From Gemmatimonadota bacterium (GTDB taxonomy: Bacteria; Gemmatimonadota; Gemmatimonadetes; Gemmatimonadales; Gemmatimonadaceae): a DNA stretch of 64,000 nucleotides. Shown one piece after another: positions 4,689 through 54,312 of the stretch; positions within the stretch are counted from its first letter, which is position 1, and each line of letters starts with the position of its first letter. The notes under the pieces were generated by a model. The model had not been told where the DNA came from. It did not search any database and saw only the letters and a list, made by a program, of their open reading frames with translations. Made by a program: the position numbers and the translations under genes. The DNA lies in the NCBI GenBank assembly GCA_021324635.1, contig JAJPIS010000070.1, positions 7,061 to 71,060 on the forward strand, given 5' to 3'.

Positions 4689-7190
4689 GTGATCGGTGCC
4701 GTGGCGTCCCCGCGCGCCGGTGCGGGATGCCCGCCCACGCCCGCCTCTGTGCGGCAGGGGGGCGTTCCGGCCGTGGACGCTCGGCCATCCCCCGGCGCCG
4801 ACACGCTCCAGCGGCGAGACTCGACGGCCAGGCGTCCGCCGAGGCGCGGTGAGCGCCGCGGCATGGCGCGCGTCGTCCCGCTGACACCGGCGCTCCTGGC
4901 GTCGGCGTACGACGGCGACGACACGCGGGCGCTGGTGGCGCTCGCCCGGGCGGCGCGGGCCAGCGACGACTCGAGCCTCCGTGATTACGATGTCGGCTCG
5001 GTCGAGCGGTTCTCCGTGTGGCTGGCGATCGGGTCGATCGGCCGCCCGCGGTTGGTGTTCCGGCGCGAGCGCGCCGAGCACGCGCGGTGGCAGCGCGGCC
5101 TGGGCGCGCTCGTCGATGTCACCGGGTCGCGCACGGCGCTGCCGCTCGCGCCGGACGAGCAGGATGTCGAGGACGACGCGATTTCCCTTCCCTACGTCCC
5201 TGGTCGGCGGCTACTGGCGCTGGGCGGGCAGCGTGGGGCCGACACGACGCAGTACGCCGAGATCGACGACATCGTCGACCCCGTCGCCGCGGGCGCCGAG
5301 GCGTACTATCGATACAGCCGCGGCGACTCGGCGATCCTGCGCATCCCCGTTCGCGGTGGCGGGCAGCGGGTGCTGCACCTGCGCGAGATCCGACTGCACG
5401 CGCGCGAGCCCGTGTGGAACCTCGCCGCCGGGTCCCTCTGGTTCGATGGCGAGAGCGGTCACCTCGTCCGGGCCGTGTACCGGTTCGCGGCCCCGATGAA
5501 CATCGTCGCGGTGGCCAAGGACGCGGACCCGCACGCCTTCGATGACGTACCGGTCTGGGTGCGGCCCCTGATCACGCCCATGACGGCGAGCCTCGACGCG
5601 GTGACGATCGAGTACAGCCTGCTCGACGGGCGCTTCTGGCTCCCGGTCGCGCGCTACGCCGACGGCAGCGCGCACGTGAACATGATGCGCGCCCCGGTGC
5701 GGTGGGAAGTCCGATACCGGTATCGCAGCGTGAACGGCCCCGACACCCTGCCCCGCCTCCCCGAGTTTGCCCGCGCCGCGGCGTCCCGGGCGTCGGCGGC
5801 GACGACCACCCCGCCCGGCAGCTCCCCTGCCCCGAGCGATACTGTCATCCCCGCCCGACCCGTCGACGGCGGTCGCGCACACGACCGGGGCGCCGGGGGC
5901 GCAACGCACCTCTCCATGCGCTCGGGCGCCGCGCGCGACGATCATTCGGATTCCGCCGAGCGTGCGATCCGCGCCGCCCAGTGTGCGCGGAGCGGCAGCT
6001 GGGAGCACGTCGAGGTGCACGACGGCTCCGTCCCGGTGGTGATTCGCACGCCGTGCGACACGGCGGCGCTCGCCCGGTCTCCGGAGCTGCCCGCGTCGAT
6101 CTACGATGACGGGACGCCGACCTTCGGGGTGCACGATCTCGACGCGCTGCGCCAGACCCTTGGGCGGGACCCGCCCCCCGACTGGCGTCCGCAGCCTGTC
6201 GAGCTTCGCTGGGGCGTGCGGGACGCGCTGGTTCGCTACAACCGGATCGAAGGCCTGTCCGTCGGCGCGGCCGCCGTCGAGGAGCTCGGGCTCGGGTTGT
6301 CGGCGCGGGCGGAAGGGCGGCTCGGCACGGCCGACCTCGAGCCGAATGGCGAGCTGCGACTGACGCGCACGACACCCGCCAGCACCGTCGGTCTCGCGCT
6401 CTATCGGCGCCTGGACGCCGCGACCGACTGGGGTGACCCGTTCAGCGTCGGCAGCTCGGTCTGGAACCTCCTCTTCGGAGGCGATGAGGGGTTCTACTAT
6501 CGCGCCTGGGGTGGCGAGCTGGCCGGCGTCGAGCGTGACTCTCCCCTGCCCTTCAGTTGGCGGCTGTTCGTCGAGGACGAGTGGACCGCCAGCGTGAAGA
6601 CGCGATTCGCGCTCACCCGTCTCGTTGGAGGCGCCCAGCTCCCTCGTGCCAATCTCGCCGCGCGCGCCGGGACCCTGAGCGGACTGGCCTTCCGGCTGCA
6701 TCCTGCGTGGGGGTCCGACCCGAGCGGGTTCCAGCTGTCGGCCGATATCCGTGGCGAGGGTGCCGGCGGGAGCTACTCGTACATTCGCGGCGCGGCCGAT
6801 CTCACCGTCGTTCACCCCATCGCGCCGTTCGCCGACGCCGCGGTCACCGTCGGCGGCGGCACCTCGGCCGGCGACCTACCGGCCCAGCGCGCCTGGTATC
6901 TGGGTGGTCTCCGCAGCGTGCGTGGGGAGCCGCCGGGGACGCAGGTCGGCGACGCCTACTGGATGACGCACCTCGAGATCGGTGGCCGCAGCCCGCTCGT
7001 GCGCCCGATCGCCTTCTACGACGTGGGCTGGGCCGGGAGCCGGTCCCTCTGGGCCCACGAGGGCCGTGCCCTCAGCGGGGCCGGCGTCGGCGTCTCATTG
7101 TTCGACGGCCTCGTTCGACTCGACATCGCCCGCGGCGTCTGGCCGTCCCACGGCGTTCGCGTCAACGCCTACTGGCAGGGCACCTTCTGA
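4689..7190 (+). CDS. Omp85/surface-antigen (D15) family outer-membrane beta-barrel protein
   Basis: C-terminal part: AWYLGGLRSVRGEPPG...YWMTHLEIG...FYDVGWAG...GAGVGVSLFDGLVRLDIARG...VNAYWQGTF, ending in an aromatic residue as outer-membrane proteins typically do. The in-frame upstream sequence WLLIRSRIIGALGALAVIGAVASP looks like the signal peptide but contains no ATG/GTG/TTG, so the true start is unresolved. Confidence 0.6.
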   Translation: MIGAVASPRAGAGCPPTPASVRQGGVPAVDARPSPGADTLQRRDSTARRPPRRGERRGMARVVPLTPALLASAYDGDDTRALVALARAARASDDSSLRDYDVGSVERFSVWLAIGSIGRPRLVFRRERAEHARWQRGLGALVDVTGSRTALPLAPDEQDVEDDAISLPYVPGRRLLALGGQRGADTTQYAEIDDIVDPVAAGAEAYYRYSRGDSAILRIPVRGGGQRVLHLREIRLHAREPVWNLAAGSLWFDGESGHLVRAVYRFAAPMNIVAVAKDADPHAFDDVPVWVRPLITPMTASLDAVTIEYSLLDGRFWLPVARYADGSAHVNMMRAPVRWEVRYRYRSVNGPDTLPRLPEFARAAASRASAATTTPPGSSPAPSDTVIPARPVDGGRAHDRGAGGATHLSMRSGAARDDHSDSAERAIRAAQCARSGSWEHVEVHDGSVPVVIRTPCDTAALARSPELPASIYDDGTPTFGVHDLDALRQTLGRDPPPDWRPQPVELRWGVRDALVRYNRIEGLSVGAAAVEELGLGLSARAEGRLGTADLEPNGELRLTRTTPASTVGLALYRRLDAATDWGDPFSVGSSVWNLLFGGDEGFYYRAWGGELAGVERDSPLPFSWRLFVEDEWTASVKTRFALTRLVGGAQLPRANLAARAGTLSGLAFRLHPAWGSDPSGFQLSADIRGEGAGGSYSYIRGAADLTVVHPIAPFADAAVTVGGGTSAGDLPAQRAWYLGGLRSVRGEPPGTQVGDAYWMTHLEIGGRSPLVRPIAFYDVGWAGSRSLWAHEGRALSGAGVGVSLFDGLVRLDIARGVWPSHGVRVNAYWQGTF

Positions 7191-49294: not shown

Positions 49295-52147
49295 TCAGTA
49301 CCCCAGTGTGAGGCGCAGGACGAAGTAGCGCGGGAGCGGGATCACCGACGGCATGGTGGCCGGGTTGAGTGCCGACCGGTCGACCTCCGGGTCCGGTCCG
49401 CTGTAGCGCGTCGACAGCCAGAGATTGCGCGCGAGGAGCGACAGCGCGGCCGTCCCCGTGTGGAGCCGGTGCGCGAGGGCGGGGGTCGCGGCGTACGTCA
49501 CCGACAGCTCGCGAAGCCGGAGAAACGATGCATCCTGTGTCGGCCCCACGTACCCTTGGCGGCCCACGACCGCGGCCTGTGCCTGCTCGGCGAGCGGCGC
49601 GCGCGGGTCGTTCGCTCCGCGGGCCGTGGCGACCGCTTGGAAGGCGGCCGCCTGGTCGATCAGGCGGTTGCCTCCCTGGTAGTCGAGCAGCCCACCGAAT
49701 CGGAGATGTCCACCGAGCACGCCGAGCGCGGATCGCAGCGAGAGTCCACGCGTGGGCAACGAGGTGCCCTGGTCGGCCAAGGGTCCGAGTGTCACCTCGT
49801 TGGGCTCGATGACGCCATCGTGGTTCGCGTCGGCGTACGAGAGCGTCGGCTCCCAGATCGAGTACAGCGCGTGTCCCACCGTGGCGAGGAAGACGGGCGA
49901 GGCGCCGTACGTCTCCTGCGGCAGCCCGGGCGCGAGCGAGACGAGCCGGTTCTGGTTCGCCCAGCCGCCGAGCCCGACATCCCACGATGCGCCGCCGGTG
50001 CGAATCACCGTCGCATCGGCCTCGATCTCGACGCCGCGGTTCCGGATCGCGGCGTCGTTCAGCTCGATGGTCGCGGCTACCCCACCGGTCGAGACCTGGG
50101 CCGGAAAGAGCGCGTCGGTGGTCGTCTTGTCGTATACACTGGCGCTGAGCGTCACCCGGTCGCGGATCGACGCGTCGGCGCCCGCCTCGTACTCCCGTAT
50201 GTGCTCGGGGCGTGGCAGTGGGCCGCCTCGTCCGATCCCGTTCCGGCCGTCGATCAGGTTGGGAACGAAGATGTTGAACACCGGGGGCAGATCACCCGTC
50301 TCCCCGATGGCGGCGTGGAGCCGGAGCGGGTTGGAGCGGTGGCGGATCGCCAACCACGAGATGGCAGCGCGTCCGTACGTGGCCTCGGGCGCACCCTTCT
50401 CGCCGTAGGCGTCGCGGCGCACCGCTCCGGTCACTGACAGCCGATCGAGGAACGTCACCGCTTCCTCGAGAAACGCGCCACGCCGTTGTGCGTTTTCGCC
50501 CGACGTGTACATCTGCTGGACGGTGCCCGTCGGCGGGTTGACGCCCGACAACAGGTTGAGAGCCACGATCGACTGGCTCGCGTAGCCGATCTCGCGGTAC
50601 GCCCCTCCGACCGTGGTGACCGCCGAGAGCAGGCCCGGAACCTCGGCCGTGCCGGAGACCGCGAGGCTCGCCGAATAGCTGTGGTCGGCGATCCGGTCGC
50701 GCGTGAACATGCCCGGAAGGGCGTCGAACGGGTCGTCGGCGGGGTCGAGGTACTGCTCGTTGCGTTCGCGACCCTTGTCGACCCCGCCGTTCGCGTGCGT
50801 CGACAACCAGCTCACCGGCGTCCAGATCCAACTGGCGCCCGCGTCGTATCGCTCGACGCGATCGGCCGACTCGTTTGCGAACAGATATCGTGGCCGTGCC
50901 GGCCCGCCGGCCCATCCGTCGTTGCTGGCCGCCGTCCCGCTCCCGGACGCGACATCGGTGGCCAGCAGCGACTCGTTCGCGGCGCCCTGGCCGCCACCGA
51001 TCGCGCTACCCGTGATCGTCACCTCGCCGAGTGCCGGGAGGGCGGTCGTCACGGAGGCGTGTCCATTCGTGCGGTCGAGCCGATTCGGCCACCGGATCGC
51101 GTTGGGCGGCGCATGGCCGTCCTGCGCCGCATAGAGCTGCGCCTCCGGGGTCGGCATGGCGAGGATGCCGCGCTCGTTCTGGCGCTCGCCGCTCACGAGA
51201 TAGCGCACCGGCCCGGTCCCGCCGTCGAGCTGGAGATTCGCCGCATCGCGGTTGCCGCCGGTGAGCGGCGACGTCCGGGTGGTAGCGAGCGGCGAGAAGT
51301 GCGTGAGGCTATCGAGGACGCACGTCCCAGCCGCGCGCGGCACCGGGCCACACCGGACCTGCGTCGTGCCGCCCGTCGCGTGGCCCCAGGCCATCCAGCT
51401 CTCGTACTGATTCGTGCTCGGGACGCCGAGCGCGCCGACCTCGGACGAGAACGCCCAGTGGAGCGCGTCGGTGCTCGGGCGGCGTGTCGTTACGAGCACG
51501 ACCCCGTTCGCGGCATCGAGCCCGTACTCCGTCGTCGCCGCCGGCCCGGTCAGCACATCGATCCGGGCGATGTCCCACGGGCTCAGCTCGTCCAGCGTCC
51601 CGATGCGCGACGGGCCGACCGGGTGGCTCTGCGCGGGATTCGCGGGATCGGCGGCGCCGCCGCGGTCGGACGCGACACGGACGCCGTCGACGTACACCGC
51701 CGGATCGGTGGTGGCGAAGATGCTCCCCACGCCGCGCACGATGATCCGTGCGCCACTGCCGCTCTGCGCGCCGGCGCTCTGGACATCGGTGCTGTGCAGG
51801 CGCCCCGAGAGCAGGTCCGTGAGCTGAAAGACCGGCGCGCCGGGTGCGACACTGTCGGCGAGAATCGCCGCCCCGGATGACGTCGTGCCCTCGTCCGTCC
51901 GCGTGGGTACCCTGCTTTCGCCCGCCGAGTCGGTGCCAGGCCGAGTCGCGGGCGCGTCGGCGGCAGGAGTCCGGCCGCCGCCATCCCCCTGGGCCTGGGC
52001 GGTCGACGTGAGCAGGAGCAGCCCGACCGAAAGGGCGGTTGGGTAACGCCAGGAGCGGTGAATCACGGAAAGATTTGACGGGGAGGGAGAGCCGAGTGGT
52101 CGCGAGCGAACGGCGGGGCTCGCGCAGCCCGGGTGGCGCGGGGGCAT
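49295..52147 (-). CDS. TonB-dependent receptor (no STN extension)
   Basis: Plug: ARIIVRGVGSIFATTDPAVYVDGVRV, IARIDVLTGPAATTEYGLDAANGVVLVTTRR. The barrel ends YFVLRLTLGY. Signal YPTALSVGLLLLTSTAQAQ. The GTG at 52066 is an alternative start. Confidence 0.85.
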   Translation of the reverse strand: MPPRHPGCASPAVRSRPLGSPSPSNLSVIHRSWRYPTALSVGLLLLTSTAQAQGDGGGRTPAADAPATRPGTDSAGESRVPTRTDEGTTSSGAAILADSVAPGAPVFQLTDLLSGRLHSTDVQSAGAQSGSGARIIVRGVGSIFATTDPAVYVDGVRVASDRGGAADPANPAQSHPVGPSRIGTLDELSPWDIARIDVLTGPAATTEYGLDAANGVVLVTTRRPSTDALHWAFSSEVGALGVPSTNQYESWMAWGHATGGTTQVRCGPVPRAAGTCVLDSLTHFSPLATTRTSPLTGGNRDAANLQLDGGTGPVRYLVSGERQNERGILAMPTPEAQLYAAQDGHAPPNAIRWPNRLDRTNGHASVTTALPALGEVTITGSAIGGGQGAANESLLATDVASGSGTAASNDGWAGGPARPRYLFANESADRVERYDAGASWIWTPVSWLSTHANGGVDKGRERNEQYLDPADDPFDALPGMFTRDRIADHSYSASLAVSGTAEVPGLLSAVTTVGGAYREIGYASQSIVALNLLSGVNPPTGTVQQMYTSGENAQRRGAFLEEAVTFLDRLSVTGAVRRDAYGEKGAPEATYGRAAISWLAIRHRSNPLRLHAAIGETGDLPPVFNIFVPNLIDGRNGIGRGGPLPRPEHIREYEAGADASIRDRVTLSASVYDKTTTDALFPAQVSTGGVAATIELNDAAIRNRGVEIEADATVIRTGGASWDVGLGGWANQNRLVSLAPGLPQETYGASPVFLATVGHALYSIWEPTLSYADANHDGVIEPNEVTLGPLADQGTSLPTRGLSLRSALGVLGGHLRFGGLLDYQGGNRLIDQAAAFQAVATARGANDPRAPLAEQAQAAVVGRQGYVGPTQDASFLRLRELSVTYAATPALAHRLHTGTAALSLLARNLWLSTRYSGPDPEVDRSALNPATMPSVIPLPRYFVLRLTLGY

Positions 52148-52271
52148 CAGGCGACCTCATCCAGGACGGCCTGGAGTTAGTCACCTCCTGCGTCGGCGTC
52201 AAGCGCCCGGCGCCCCGGGGCAATACCCGGCGCTTGCGGCAAACTGCGACGGGCCATACTGTATCGGGGCA

Positions 52272-52397
52272 ATGGTCACCGTGTCCGTCCGTCGCGCCGC
52301 CGCGCTTGGCTACTGGTTTAGCGGCTTTGGCTACCCCTATCGACAGGGGGCCGAGGGCGCTGCGTGGCGCGCCGAGGACTGGGAGCGAGAGTCGTAG
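52272..52397 (+). CDS. candidate 41-aa aromatic-rich leader peptide
   Basis: My own translation (too short for the track): MVTVSVRRAAALGYWFSGFGYPYRQGAEGAAWRAEDWERES. Six of eleven consecutive residues are Tyr/Trp/Phe, and the ttt, ttt and tat codons used are unusual in this GC-rich DNA. The RBS is weak. Confidence 0.35.
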   Translation: MVTVSVRRAAALGYWFSGFGYPYRQGAEGAAWRAEDWERES

Positions 52398-52445
52398 CAA
52401 ATAAGCGAGCACCGCCCAGCACTCGACGACGACACGGAAACCCCC

Positions 52446-52484
52446 ACGGCCCCCGGACAGACACCGGGGGCCGTTCTGTTTGTG
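52446..52484 (+). terminator. intrinsic terminator / attenuator hairpin in the DAHP synthase leader
   Basis: ACGGCCCCCGG-acagaca-CCGGGGGCCGT (perfect 11-bp GC stem) followed by TCTGTTTGTG. Lies 43 nt upstream of the ATG at 52527, with no + strand gene upstream for it to terminate. Confidence 0.55.
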
Positions 52485-52526
52485 ATCCGAGCCTCGAACC
52501 CGACCCTTCGCCCCCCCCCCACAGCC

Positions 52527-53681
52527 ATGATCATCATCACCAAGCCCGACATTGCCCCCTCCGCCTTCGACGCCATCCTCGAGCGGATCGAGCGGGCCGG
52601 GCTCGTCGCTCACGTGAGCCGCGGCACCGAGCGGATCGTCATCGGGTGCGTGGGTGACGAGCGCGCGCTTGAAGACGTGCCGCTCGCCGCGCTGCCGGGC
52701 GTCGATCGTGTCATGCCCGTGCTCAAGCCCTACCGGCTCGCCTCGCGAGAGACCCGCGCCGCGCCCGAGGCGACGACCGAAGTCGTCCTTGGCGTCGAGA
52801 GTGGTGCGGACCCCTGCGTCGTGGGCGGGCGCGCCCTCGCCATCATTGCGGGGCCGTGTTCCGTCGAGGGGCGTGAGATGCTCCACGACACCGCCGGCGC
52901 CGTTCGTGGCGCGGGTGCGTCGGCGCTCCGGGGTGGTGCGTACAAGCCGCGCACCTCGCCGTACGCCTTCCAGGGGATGGGCGCGCCCGGACTCGAGCTG
53001 CTGGCCGACGTTCGTGCGAGCACCGGGCTGCCGGTCGTGAGTGAAGTGATGGATCCGCGGCAAGTCGAGTCGATGGCGGGCGTCGTCGACTGCCTGCAAG
53101 TGGGCGCGCGCAACATGCAAAACTTCGCCCTGCTCGCCGAAGTCGGGACCGCGCGCGTTCCCGTGCTCCTCAAGCGCGGACTGTCGGCGACCGTGCACGA
53201 GCTGCTGATGGCTGCCGAGTACGTGCTCTCCCGCGGCAACCCCCACGTGATCCTCTGCGAGCGCGGTATCCGCACCTTCGAGACCGCCACCCGGAACACC
53301 CTCGACGTCGCGGCGATCCCCGTGCTGCGGGCCGAAACCCACCTGCCCGTGCTCGTCGACCCGAGCCACGCGGGAGGGAAAGCGGCGCTCGTGGCGCCAC
53401 TCGCGTACGCCGCCATCGCCGCCGGTGCCGACGGGTTGATCGTCGAAGTGCACCCCGATCCGTCGGCCGCTCGATCGGACGGCGAGCAGAGCCTCACCTT
53501 CGAGCAGTTCCGGGCGATGATGGTGCACCTCGGCGCATTCGCCGCCGCCGCCGGGCGGACGATGGGGCACGTGGGCGCCGGCTCGGCGGCGCGCTCCGGC
53601 GTCGTGGCCGGACGTGGTGCGCTCGGGGTGGCGCTTCCCGCCCGGAGCGGGTCGCGGACGGGCGGAGGCGCGGCCGCGTGA
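52527..53681 (+). CDS. 3-deoxy-7-phosphoheptulonate (DAHP) synthase, type I-beta, with N-terminal ferredoxin-like regulatory domain
   Basis: MIIITKPD...VIGCVGDE...[11 protein letters not shown], then [65 protein letters not shown]. Collinear with the Thermotoga-type enzyme. Confidence 0.9.
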
Positions 53682-53724: not shown

Positions 53725-54312
53725 GTGACCTCTGAGGGCGGCTATCGTCCGCCCGGCCGCCTCCGCGTCGCGTACCAGGGGGAGCCGGGCGCCTTCAGCG
53801 AAGTGGCGATCGCGCAGCTCTGGGGTCGCGCGGGGGACGGCGTGTCACGGCACGACTTCCCGGACGTCGTCCGCGCCGTCGTGGACGGGGCGGCCGACGC
53901 CGGCGTGCTCCCCGTGTGGAACGCCGTCGTCGGGCGGATCGCGTCGAGCGTGGCCGCGCTGCGTGAAACGCGGGCGCTCGCCGTGGTGGGGGAGACCGAA
54001 GTCGCGGTCCGGCTGCAACTGCTCGCGCTCCCCGGCGTGCCGGCGTCGGTGCTCTGCCGCGTCGCCAGCCATCCCGTGGCGCTCGGGCAGTGTGGGCGCT
54101 ATCTGGCCCGGCATCCCGGTCTTGCGCCGGTGCTCGCGCACGACACCGCCGGCGCGGCCCGCGCGGTCGCGGAGTCCGGCGATCCCCGGAGCGCCGCGAT
54201 CGCCGGCCCGGCCGCGGCCGAGCGTTACGGGCTCGTCGTCCTGGCTGACCGGATCGCCGACCGGTCCGACAATCGGACCCGGTTCGTCGCCGTCGTGCGT
54301 CGCACCGGATAG
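53725..54312 (+). CDS. pheA: prephenate dehydratase catalytic (PDT) domain only, no ACT domain
   Basis: LRVAYQGEPGAFSE, GVLPVWNAVVGRI, ASHPVALGQC, NRTRFVAV, then a stop where the ACT domain normally begins. Confidence 0.8.
   Translation: MTSEGGYRPPGRLRVAYQGEPGAFSEVAIAQLWGRAGDGVSRHDFPDVVRAVVDGAADAGVLPVWNAVVGRIASSVAALRETRALAVVGETEVAVRLQLLALPGVPASVLCRVASHPVALGQCGRYLARHPGLAPVLAHDTAGAARAVAESGDPRSAAIAGPAAAERYGLVVLADRIADRSDNRTRFVAVVRRTG

Follow-up and report, generated by a model that had tools for sequence, protein, structure and literature searches.

A probable aromatic leader-peptide attenuator upstream of an aroF-pheA operon in a Gemmatimonadota bacterium

Introduction

Ribosome-mediated attenuation, in which the leader peptide is rich in the regulated amino acid, controls the pheA, trp and his operons of enterobacteria. 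Another such leader, aroR, precedes the gene aroF of Corynebacterium glutamicum and is reportedly translated from a leaderless transcript. The system has a Phe-Tyr-Phe leader peptide before aroF, the gene for 3-deoxy-D-arabino-heptulosonate 7-phosphate (DAHP) synthase, and its read-through rises when ribosomes stall under Phe limitation (Neshat et al. 2014, as summarized in PMC11802643). Here we describe a candidate attenuator of this general kind in a 64,000-nucleotide stretch of DNA from a Gemmatimonadota bacterium (positions 7,061 to 71,060 of contig JAJPIS010000070.1, assembly GCA_021324635.1; the whole stretch is referred to as the window). The element is the leader that precedes a DAHP synthase gene (aroF) and a prephenate dehydratase gene (pheA), and the source genome is 4.09 Mb in size, 71% G+C and Gemmatimonadaceae-like.

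Short regulatory open reading frames (ORFs) on leaderless transcripts have been reported in other bacteria. Deinococcus deserti has 14 predicted leaderless leader peptides, which gene callers had missed (PMC4007540), and mycobacteria carry polycysteine leaderless short ORFs (bioRxiv 10.1101/834739; Canestrari et al. 2020, as cited in PMC13236596). Gemmatimonadota is a common soil phylum that has been little studied and whose gene regulation is poorly known. Our literature search found no paper describing leader-peptide attenuation in Gemmatimonadota (Gemmatimonadetes). An earlier sequence-only reading of the window, which proposed attenuation at this locus, knew of no such element in this kind of organism; our search agrees with this for the phylum, but the kind of element is already known from C. 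glutamicum aroR-aroF.

We conclude, with a probability of roughly 85%, that the aroF-pheA operon is under ribosome-mediated (leader-peptide) transcription attenuation by this element, which most likely raises transcription of the operon when charged aromatic tRNAs run low. We infer from sequence where transcription starts, that the ORF is translated, that the hairpin terminates transcription and that the element responds to amino-acid supply.

Results

Layout of the leader

The intergenic gap between the divergent gene for a TonB receptor and the DAHP synthase gene covers 52148-52526, which is 379 bp rather than the 376 bp first given, and, as first noted, it has no plus-strand gene upstream. 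The following parts of the leader were recognized in it.

52234-52239, plus strand: putative -35 box, TTGCGG, read from the sequence, with similar boxes equally spaced in relatives
52257-52262, plus strand: putative -10 box, TACTGT, with a 17-nt spacer to the -35 box and a 9-nt gap to the ATG
52272-52397, plus strand: leader-peptide ORF of 41 codons plus TAG, peptide MVTVSVRRAAALGYWFSGFGYPYRQGAEGAAWRAEDWERES, read from the sequence and from homologous ORFs in relatives
52311-52340, plus strand: putative regulatory codon cluster Y14 W15 F16.. F19. Y21. Y23, from codon reading
52320-52338, plus strand: region 1, AGCGGCTTTGGCTACCCCT, which overlaps codons 17-23 and pairs with region 2 in the minimum-free-energy fold
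52345-52361, plus strand: region 2, AGGGGGCCGAGGGCGCT, predicted by folding and alignment to pair with region 1 or, as the antiterminator, with the terminator's 5' arm
52446-52456, plus strand: region 3, the predicted 5' arm of the terminator, ACGGCCCCCGG, from folding and alignment
52464-52474, plus strand: region 4, the predicted 3' arm of the terminator, CCGGGGGCCGT, from folding and alignment
52475-52484, plus strand: U-rich tail, TCTGTTTGTG, with 5 T in 10, from the sequence

The ORF and its cluster of Tyr, Trp and Phe codons are present as the sequence-only reading had listed them. Six aromatic residues (3 Tyr, 2 Phe and 1 Trp) lie among codons 14 to 23 and are encoded by TAC TGG TTT ... 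TTT ... TAC ... TAT, while the ORF as a whole has a G+C content at third codon positions (GC3) of 80%. Region 1 joins region 2 in three helices of the minimum-free-energy fold (52320-23/52358-61, 52325-31/52350-56 and 52334-38/52345-49). Region 1 is present in two copies (GCTTGGCTAC at 52304-52313 and GCTTTGGCTAC at 52324-52334), with aromatic codons after each. The hairpin at 52446-52474 has 11 pairs, 10 of them G-C, around a 7-nt loop, and both it and its tail were described correctly before, except that 42 nt, and not 43, separate the tail from the ATG of the DAHP synthase gene at 52527.

The segment after the aromatic codons that is complementary to the 5' arm of the terminator had also been recognized, at 52347-52354; it is present, with GGGGGCCG at 52346-52353 facing CGGCCCCC at 52447-52454. 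Alternative pairing is indeed possible, as the calculated energies are -26.6 kcal/mol for 1:2, -26.0 for 2:3 and -24.8 for 3:4. As modeled, the three pairings compete at nearly equal strength and the regulatory codons fall within region 1, which is the layout of a classical attenuator.

Chance expectation within the genome

We compared these features with the rest of the genome. Among 1,584 long high-GC3 ORFs, TTT accounts for 8% of Phe codons and TAT for 18% of Tyr codons, so that both are rare, as had been claimed. Clusters of at least six aromatic residues in 12 occur in only 4 of 23,263 small ORFs (15 to 70 amino acids) genome-wide, the leader in the window included. The three other dense aromatic ORFs were rejected as leaders (dnaN upstream region; overlap with tRNA genes; antisense to a gene). 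The 29-mer of the hairpin occurs once in the genome, and the fold of the whole leader has a z-score of -2.7 against shuffles. For the complementarity between region 2 and the terminator arm, shuffled ORFs gave a duplex of -20.7 kcal/mol or better in 7% of cases, and genomic windows chosen at random in 2.7%. Such complementarity is not rare in GC-rich DNA. The window alone is suggestive but not conclusive, and it is the comparison with relatives that decides the case.

Conservation across Gemmatimonadota

We surveyed 100 orthologous DAHP synthase loci from 301 genomes of the phylum, counting as a leader an ORF with at least three aromatic residues in 12 and a stop codon 55 to 145 nt before the gene. 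Of the first 15 Gemmatimonadota orthologues, examined before this survey, 12 besides the window carried an ORF with an aromatic cluster that ended 80 to 130 nt before the gene, and most of these ORFs had a GC hairpin and a T run behind them; examples of the peptides are MTRATAYRYYYYFATRL..., MTTHATSYLAYFTSFWGYSPGSR and MTTVRLSGAFYFTYAGFPFRGG... A relative of the same genus (locus L083) also has an aromatic leader, and in a single-contig genome of family f1 (G096) the leader MTRHASAITYACRFYYPPTRMGPGEFGMRS stands before aroF. Over the whole survey, an aromatic-rich ORF of 19 to 40 codons was present at 54 of the 100 loci, and at 50 of those 54 a hairpin and a T run were present as well. The relatives' T-rich tails are comparable to that of the window or stronger. 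By family, the ORF was found at 25/25 loci of f1, to which the window belongs, 15/16 of f2, 4/4 of f4 and 4/4 of f8, and sparsely or not at all in f7 (6/40), f6 (0/2) and f10 (0/9). The reverse-complement strand served as a control: at least four aromatic residues were present in 53 of 100 sense regions versus 6 of 100 reverse-complement regions.

As a negative control we used a paralogous DAHP synthase, which in the source genome is 50% identical, has the same kind of ferredoxin-like domain (C36:23232-24344, minus strand; locus L215, 1278-2348) and sits between smc and a lolA-like gene with an AGGAGG ribosome-binding site. Its orthologues likewise have a Shine-Dalgarno motif, and at the 26 paralogue loci there was no convincing leader; a single aromatic-rich ORF lies near the gene (L100), and no terminator follows any. 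Of the two entry enzymes of the genome, one would thus be under attenuation while the paralogue apparently is not.

Within the genus of the window, the attenuated orthologue was present in only 2 of 9 genomes (G001 and G002), and three genomes of the genus that are more than 90% complete hold only the paralogous DAHP synthase. The aroF-pheA unit therefore looks accessory there.

Covariation of the stems

Alignment of related leaders, with covariation in the stems, had been named beforehand as a check on the attenuation reading. Besides the conservation of ORF and hairpin reported above, both stems covary in an alignment of 13 leaders of the window's subfamily, which supports that reading. In the terminator, 96.5% of the alignment cells pair and 8 of the 11 pairs have changed on both sides, a result matched by none of 500 shuffles. 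In the antiterminator, 91.5% of cells pair, versus 38 to 62% when the partner is slid out of register; two positions are compensatory, with A-U compensations in three leaders (L002, L005 and L136), and the covariation score was equaled in 8 of 500 shuffles. Across 50 leaders, the 5' arm of the terminator pairs better with the ORF of its own leader (-18.7 kcal/mol) than with those of others (-15.5 kcal/mol; permutation p<=5e-5), and an analysis of 13 leaders pointed the same way. Where a terminator is of a CGGGC type or of a GGGGC type, its region 2 is always of that type too (9/0/0/9). The p-values overstate independence because the sequences are related, but the direction is consistent all the same.

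Outside the aromatic cluster and the codons of region 2, the leader peptides are not conserved. Their recurring endings, "...TGRG..." and "...PGGR...", are explained by region 2, which is encoded inside the ORF. This pattern bears on the idea that the ORF is an independent small-protein gene with its own terminator, and that the DAHP synthase gene has its own promoter. The promoter, high GC3 and terminator of the ORF do resemble those of a stand-alone gene. However, a peptide free to vary outside those two elements argues against it, as do the spacing downstream, where only 42 C-rich bases without a promoter-like site lie between the tail and the ATG, and the fact that, throughout the phylum, the arrangement goes with a single orthologue group of DAHP synthase. 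We regard a separate small-protein gene as scarcely credible.

Promoter spacing and the start of translation

The leaders share a promoter grammar: a TTGACA-like or TTGCGC-like box, 16 to 18 nt, an nAnnnT box, and 4 to 11 nt to the start codon. This grammar was found in 43 of 51 leaders versus 0.35% of random ATG or GTG sites. The promoter-like element TTGCGG-N17-TACTGT, which the sequence-only reading had placed at 52234-52262 and called weak, is present, and the 43 relatives have like boxes at equal spacing. The commonest gap between the -10 box and the start codon is 6 to 7 nt in relatives, and it is 9 nt in the window, where transcription would start at about 52269-52271. With such spacing, transcription would begin at the start codon or immediately beside it, so that the mRNA from which the leader peptide is translated is probably leaderless or nearly so. 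Leaderless translation would also account for the ribosome-binding site of the small ORF, which had been listed as a caveat: it is weak, as is to be expected of such an mRNA. In line with this, a Shine-Dalgarno-like motif precedes only 3 of 51 leader starts, versus 56 of 100 DAHP synthase starts.

Amino-acid content of the leaders and the operons they precede

Rare regulatory codons are known from classical attenuators. In the Gemmatimonadota leaders, TTT makes up 60% of Phe codons and TAT 38% of Tyr codons, well above the 8% and 18% in this genome. The gene after that for DAHP synthase differs among relatives, being the gene for prephenate dehydratase, those for chorismate mutase and prephenate dehydrogenase, trpE, or none, and the composition of the leader differs with it. 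Of the 13 operons with tyrA, 11 have a leader with at least four Tyr, as against only 1 of 54 others. Only three leaders contain three Trp (WWPW, WWTW), and these are the only three with trpE downstream. The Trp-rich leaders before aroF-trpE operons are at loci L198, L206 and L208, all in family f2, and one genome (G214) has both a Phe/Tyr-type (L199) and a Trp-type (L208) attenuated DAHP synthase. A corresponding link between Phe-rich leaders and pheA is not supported: the raw mean Phe counts differ (3.75 vs 1.1; Mann-Whitney p 5e-5), yet the enzymes linked to pheA make up essentially a single clade. The window, with its mixed cluster, is a member of this pheA-linked clade (support 99).

Other leaders of the same design in the genome

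We scanned the genome for the same grammar, defined as the promoter spacing, an ORF of 12 to 50 codons, complementarity to the terminator that follows, and a T-rich tail. Four matches were obtained: the aromatic leader, a His leader, a Cys-Cys ORF and one doubtful case. The His leader, VSAIVRHHHHHVHLHG... (VSAIVRHHHHHVHLHGPRAAARHAHMDDRRMI, HHHHHVHLH), lies 42 nt before hisG-hisD (Pfam HisG, HisG_C). It is located at C119:16113-16275 (locus L213, 214-376) and consists of TTGACG, 17 nt, TATCTT, 7 nt and a GTG start, followed by a terminator; judged from its sequence, it resembles a classical his attenuator and shares the leaderless design. The Cys-Cys ORF, MHVRGTCCRLLTAALMRPGRHAGVS, has 25 codons (C110:5717-5840; locus L214, 218-341), the same promoter spacing and a terminator, and lies before a gene for a two-domain rhodanese (sulfurtransferase). 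It may be an attenuator that senses Cys, as with the polycysteine short ORFs of mycobacteria. Given these further leaders, the organism seems to use leader-peptide attenuation more generally. At trpE (C104:30850-31614, minus strand) the short upstream gap has neither a leader ORF nor a terminator, and the Trp synthesis genes of this genome are apparently not attenuated.

These results also bear on whether a protein or a small molecule could act on the leader as an RNA switch, in the way of TRAP, a T-box or a riboswitch, with the ORF untranslated and its aromatic codons a by-product. The 1:2, 2:3 and 3:4 pairings would suit any switch between a terminator and an antiterminator. What such a switch does not predict is a conserved reading frame whose start is fixed relative to the promoter while the nucleotide sequence of the cluster varies, a leader composition that tracks the branch gene (Tyr with tyrA, Trp with trpE), or an identical grammar that yields a run of His codons before hisG. 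The absence of any Rfam family match also counts against it, the Rfam leader families and the T-box having given only noise in 51500-53000 at E values up to 10. The same models miss the His leader (His_leader) and the Cys leader of this genome as well; because they are blind even to its obvious His leader, they evidently do not reach this phylum, and their silence is uninformative on the mechanism. Overall, we consider an RNA switch of this kind very improbable.

Folding and ribosome-stall models

The mechanism that we propose for the attenuator is as follows. Transcription would begin a few bases before the ATG at 52272, and a ribosome would load on the leaderless or nearly leaderless mRNA and translate the 41-codon leader as RNA polymerase advances. 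When charged Tyr-, Phe- and Trp-tRNA are ample, the ribosome would pass the aromatic codons and region 1 would re-pair with region 2, leaving region 3 free to form the 11-bp terminator with region 4, so that transcription would stop near 52484. When an aromatic tRNA is scarce, the ribosome would stall on codons 14 to 23 and cover region 1; the freed region 2 would capture region 3 as it emerges, no terminator would form, and transcription would read through into the genes for DAHP synthase and prephenate dehydratase.

We modeled stalling in two ways. In the first model, the transcript is cut just after region 3 and all RNA up to the leading edge of the stalled ribosome is masked; in the second, the ribosome has a 30-nt footprint and the RNA 5' of it is left free to pair. 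With the upstream RNA masked, the pairing of region 3 with the leader ORF in the window rose from 0.00 to 0.73-0.85 on stalling, and over 51 leaders the mean 2:3 pairing was 0.42 in free RNA versus 0.75 in stalled complexes. With the 30-nt footprint, the mean 2:3 pairing over the 51 leaders was 0.72 on stalling (Wilcoxon p 8e-7 versus free).

Several observations weigh against attenuation, or against a clean form of it in the window. Complementarity between region 2 and the terminator is, in the window alone, not rare (3 to 7% of controls). With the 30-nt footprint, the antiterminator formed in the window only for a stall at F19 (0.56); this is because region 2 can be bound, across the ribosome, by the additional region 1 copy GCTTGGCTAC, in a helix that the model allows but that, since it closes a loop filled by the ribosome, we judged sterically unlikely. 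At 41 codons the leader is longer than most (19 to 40 in relatives), its stop codon lies 41 nt beyond region 2, and 84 nt separate regions 2 and 3. The U-tract of the window is interrupted (TCTGTTTGTG), and about half of the relatives favor 2:3 pairing in free RNA at equilibrium, so that in those relatives the off state must rest on kinetics or on the position of the ribosome. On the enzyme tree, the link between leader composition and operon content amounts to three supported tyrA contrasts, all in the expected direction, and one trpE clade, and the link between Phe and pheA has no support in independent contrasts. Overall, the modeled stalling geometry appears less clean in the window's own leader than in relatives.

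Part of this evidence would suit a different output. The ORF could be translated and sense aromatic tRNA, with the hairpin playing a secondary role and the effect exerted through mRNA stability, downstream translation or Rho-dependent termination, the last if a stall uncoupled transcription and translation. The interrupted U-tract, the lack of a clean off state in equilibrium folds of about half of the relatives, and a DAHP synthase start that lacks a Shine-Dalgarno motif and follows a C-rich tract are all consistent with this. On the other side, the GC hairpin and T-rich tail are kept in 50 of 54 leaders with a covarying stem, and the competing segment covaries too, as a switch based on an intrinsic terminator predicts. 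We therefore consider an output other than intrinsic termination unlikely and retain transcription attenuation as the reading of the leader.

The long ORF of the leader is a genus trait, with 37 to 41 codons in L082, L083 and the window. In fold models, the first copy of region 1 can substitute for the second, and the duplication could bias the switch toward stalls at F19 to Y23.

Genes around the leader

The leader is flanked by the following genes and spacer.

49295-52147, minus strand: TonB-dependent receptor gene (Pfam Plug and TonB_dep_Rec_b-barrel)
52485-52526, plus strand: C-rich, G-poor spacer with no Shine-Dalgarno motif and a C10 run at 52511-52520, from reading of the sequence
52527-53681, plus strand: gene for DAHP synthase with an N-terminal ferredoxin-like domain, the regulated gene (Pfam DAHP_synth_1, 2.8e-79; DAHP_snth_FXD, 5.8e-21)
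53725-54312, plus strand: gene for prephenate dehydratase with the catalytic domain alone, which closes the operon as its second gene (Pfam PDT, 1.1e-46, residues 15-192 of 195)

The gene order, together with a convergent minus-strand ORF 3' of the prephenate dehydratase gene, indicates that the target of the leader is a two-gene aroF-pheA operon. The prephenate dehydratase gene may alternatively start at a GTG at 53614. Its product consists of the PDT domain alone, without an ACT regulatory domain, and feedback by Phe on the enzyme may therefore be absent. In the spacer, the C10 run stops 6 nt short of the DAHP synthase ATG, and pyrimidine-rich or C-rich, G-poor spacers are also seen in several relatives. 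Judging from its sequence, pairing of the run with region 4, which is G-rich, is conceivable once the antiterminator forms.

Discussion

The element is a concrete, testable regulatory unit, comprising a promoter, a probable leaderless start, a sensing peptide and a terminator. Within the phylum it is conserved throughout most of one class, its specificity for amino acids seems to be matched to the operon under its control, and current RNA family libraries miss it. As a mechanism it is textbook, and what the element adds is range and detail rather than a new principle. There are also consequences for annotation: as in D. deserti, small leader ORFs and their terminators in Gemmatimonadota may escape gene callers, and a transcription unit could wrongly be taken to end at a leader hairpin.

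A broader proposal is that the element belongs to a class-wide Gemmatimonadota family of aromatic attenuators that are leaderless, accompany a single DAHP synthase lineage and have codons tuned to the co-transcribed branch enzyme. Under it, tyrA would go with leaders rich in Tyr, trpE with leaders rich in Trp, and pheA with leaders that contain Phe or are mixed, the case in the window. We find the arguments for and against this proposal evenly balanced. In Escherichia coli, TyrR and TrpR repress the three DAHP synthases in an isoenzyme-specific manner; if the proposal is true, leader peptides do the job of these repressors in Gemmatimonadota.

The enterobacterial attenuators (pheL-pheA, trpL-trp and hisL-his) resemble the window leader in having regulatory codons in region 1, three competing pairings (1:2, 2:3 and 3:4), and an intrinsic terminator ahead of the operon that makes the amino acid sensed. 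They differ from it in that their Rfam models (Phe_leader RF01859, Trp_leader RF00513 and His_leader RF00514) do not match the window leader, which lacks a Shine-Dalgarno motif, is probably leaderless and mixes three amino acids. Moreover, the window leader would control entry into the pathway, through DAHP synthase, and not only a terminal branch.

The D. deserti and mycobacterial ORFs are alike in that a regulatory short ORF stands, as it probably does in the window, at or next to the 5' end of the transcript, before genes of amino-acid biosynthesis or related genes. Their starts were mapped, whereas that of the window leader follows from promoter spacing, and the amino acids and lineages differ.

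In C. glutamicum aroR-aroF, as in the window, the DAHP synthase gene is immediately preceded by a leader peptide whose aromatic codons cluster. Homology in sequence between the two was not apparent, though no test aimed at it was made. The two systems belong to different phyla, Actinomycetota and Gemmatimonadota, and the cluster in the window is longer and mixed (Tyr, Phe and Trp). The enzyme in the window has a ferredoxin-like N-terminal domain and prephenate dehydratase as its partner, and for the window leader we infer the function. Because the phyla are distant, an independent origin of the window leader and aroR seems more likely.

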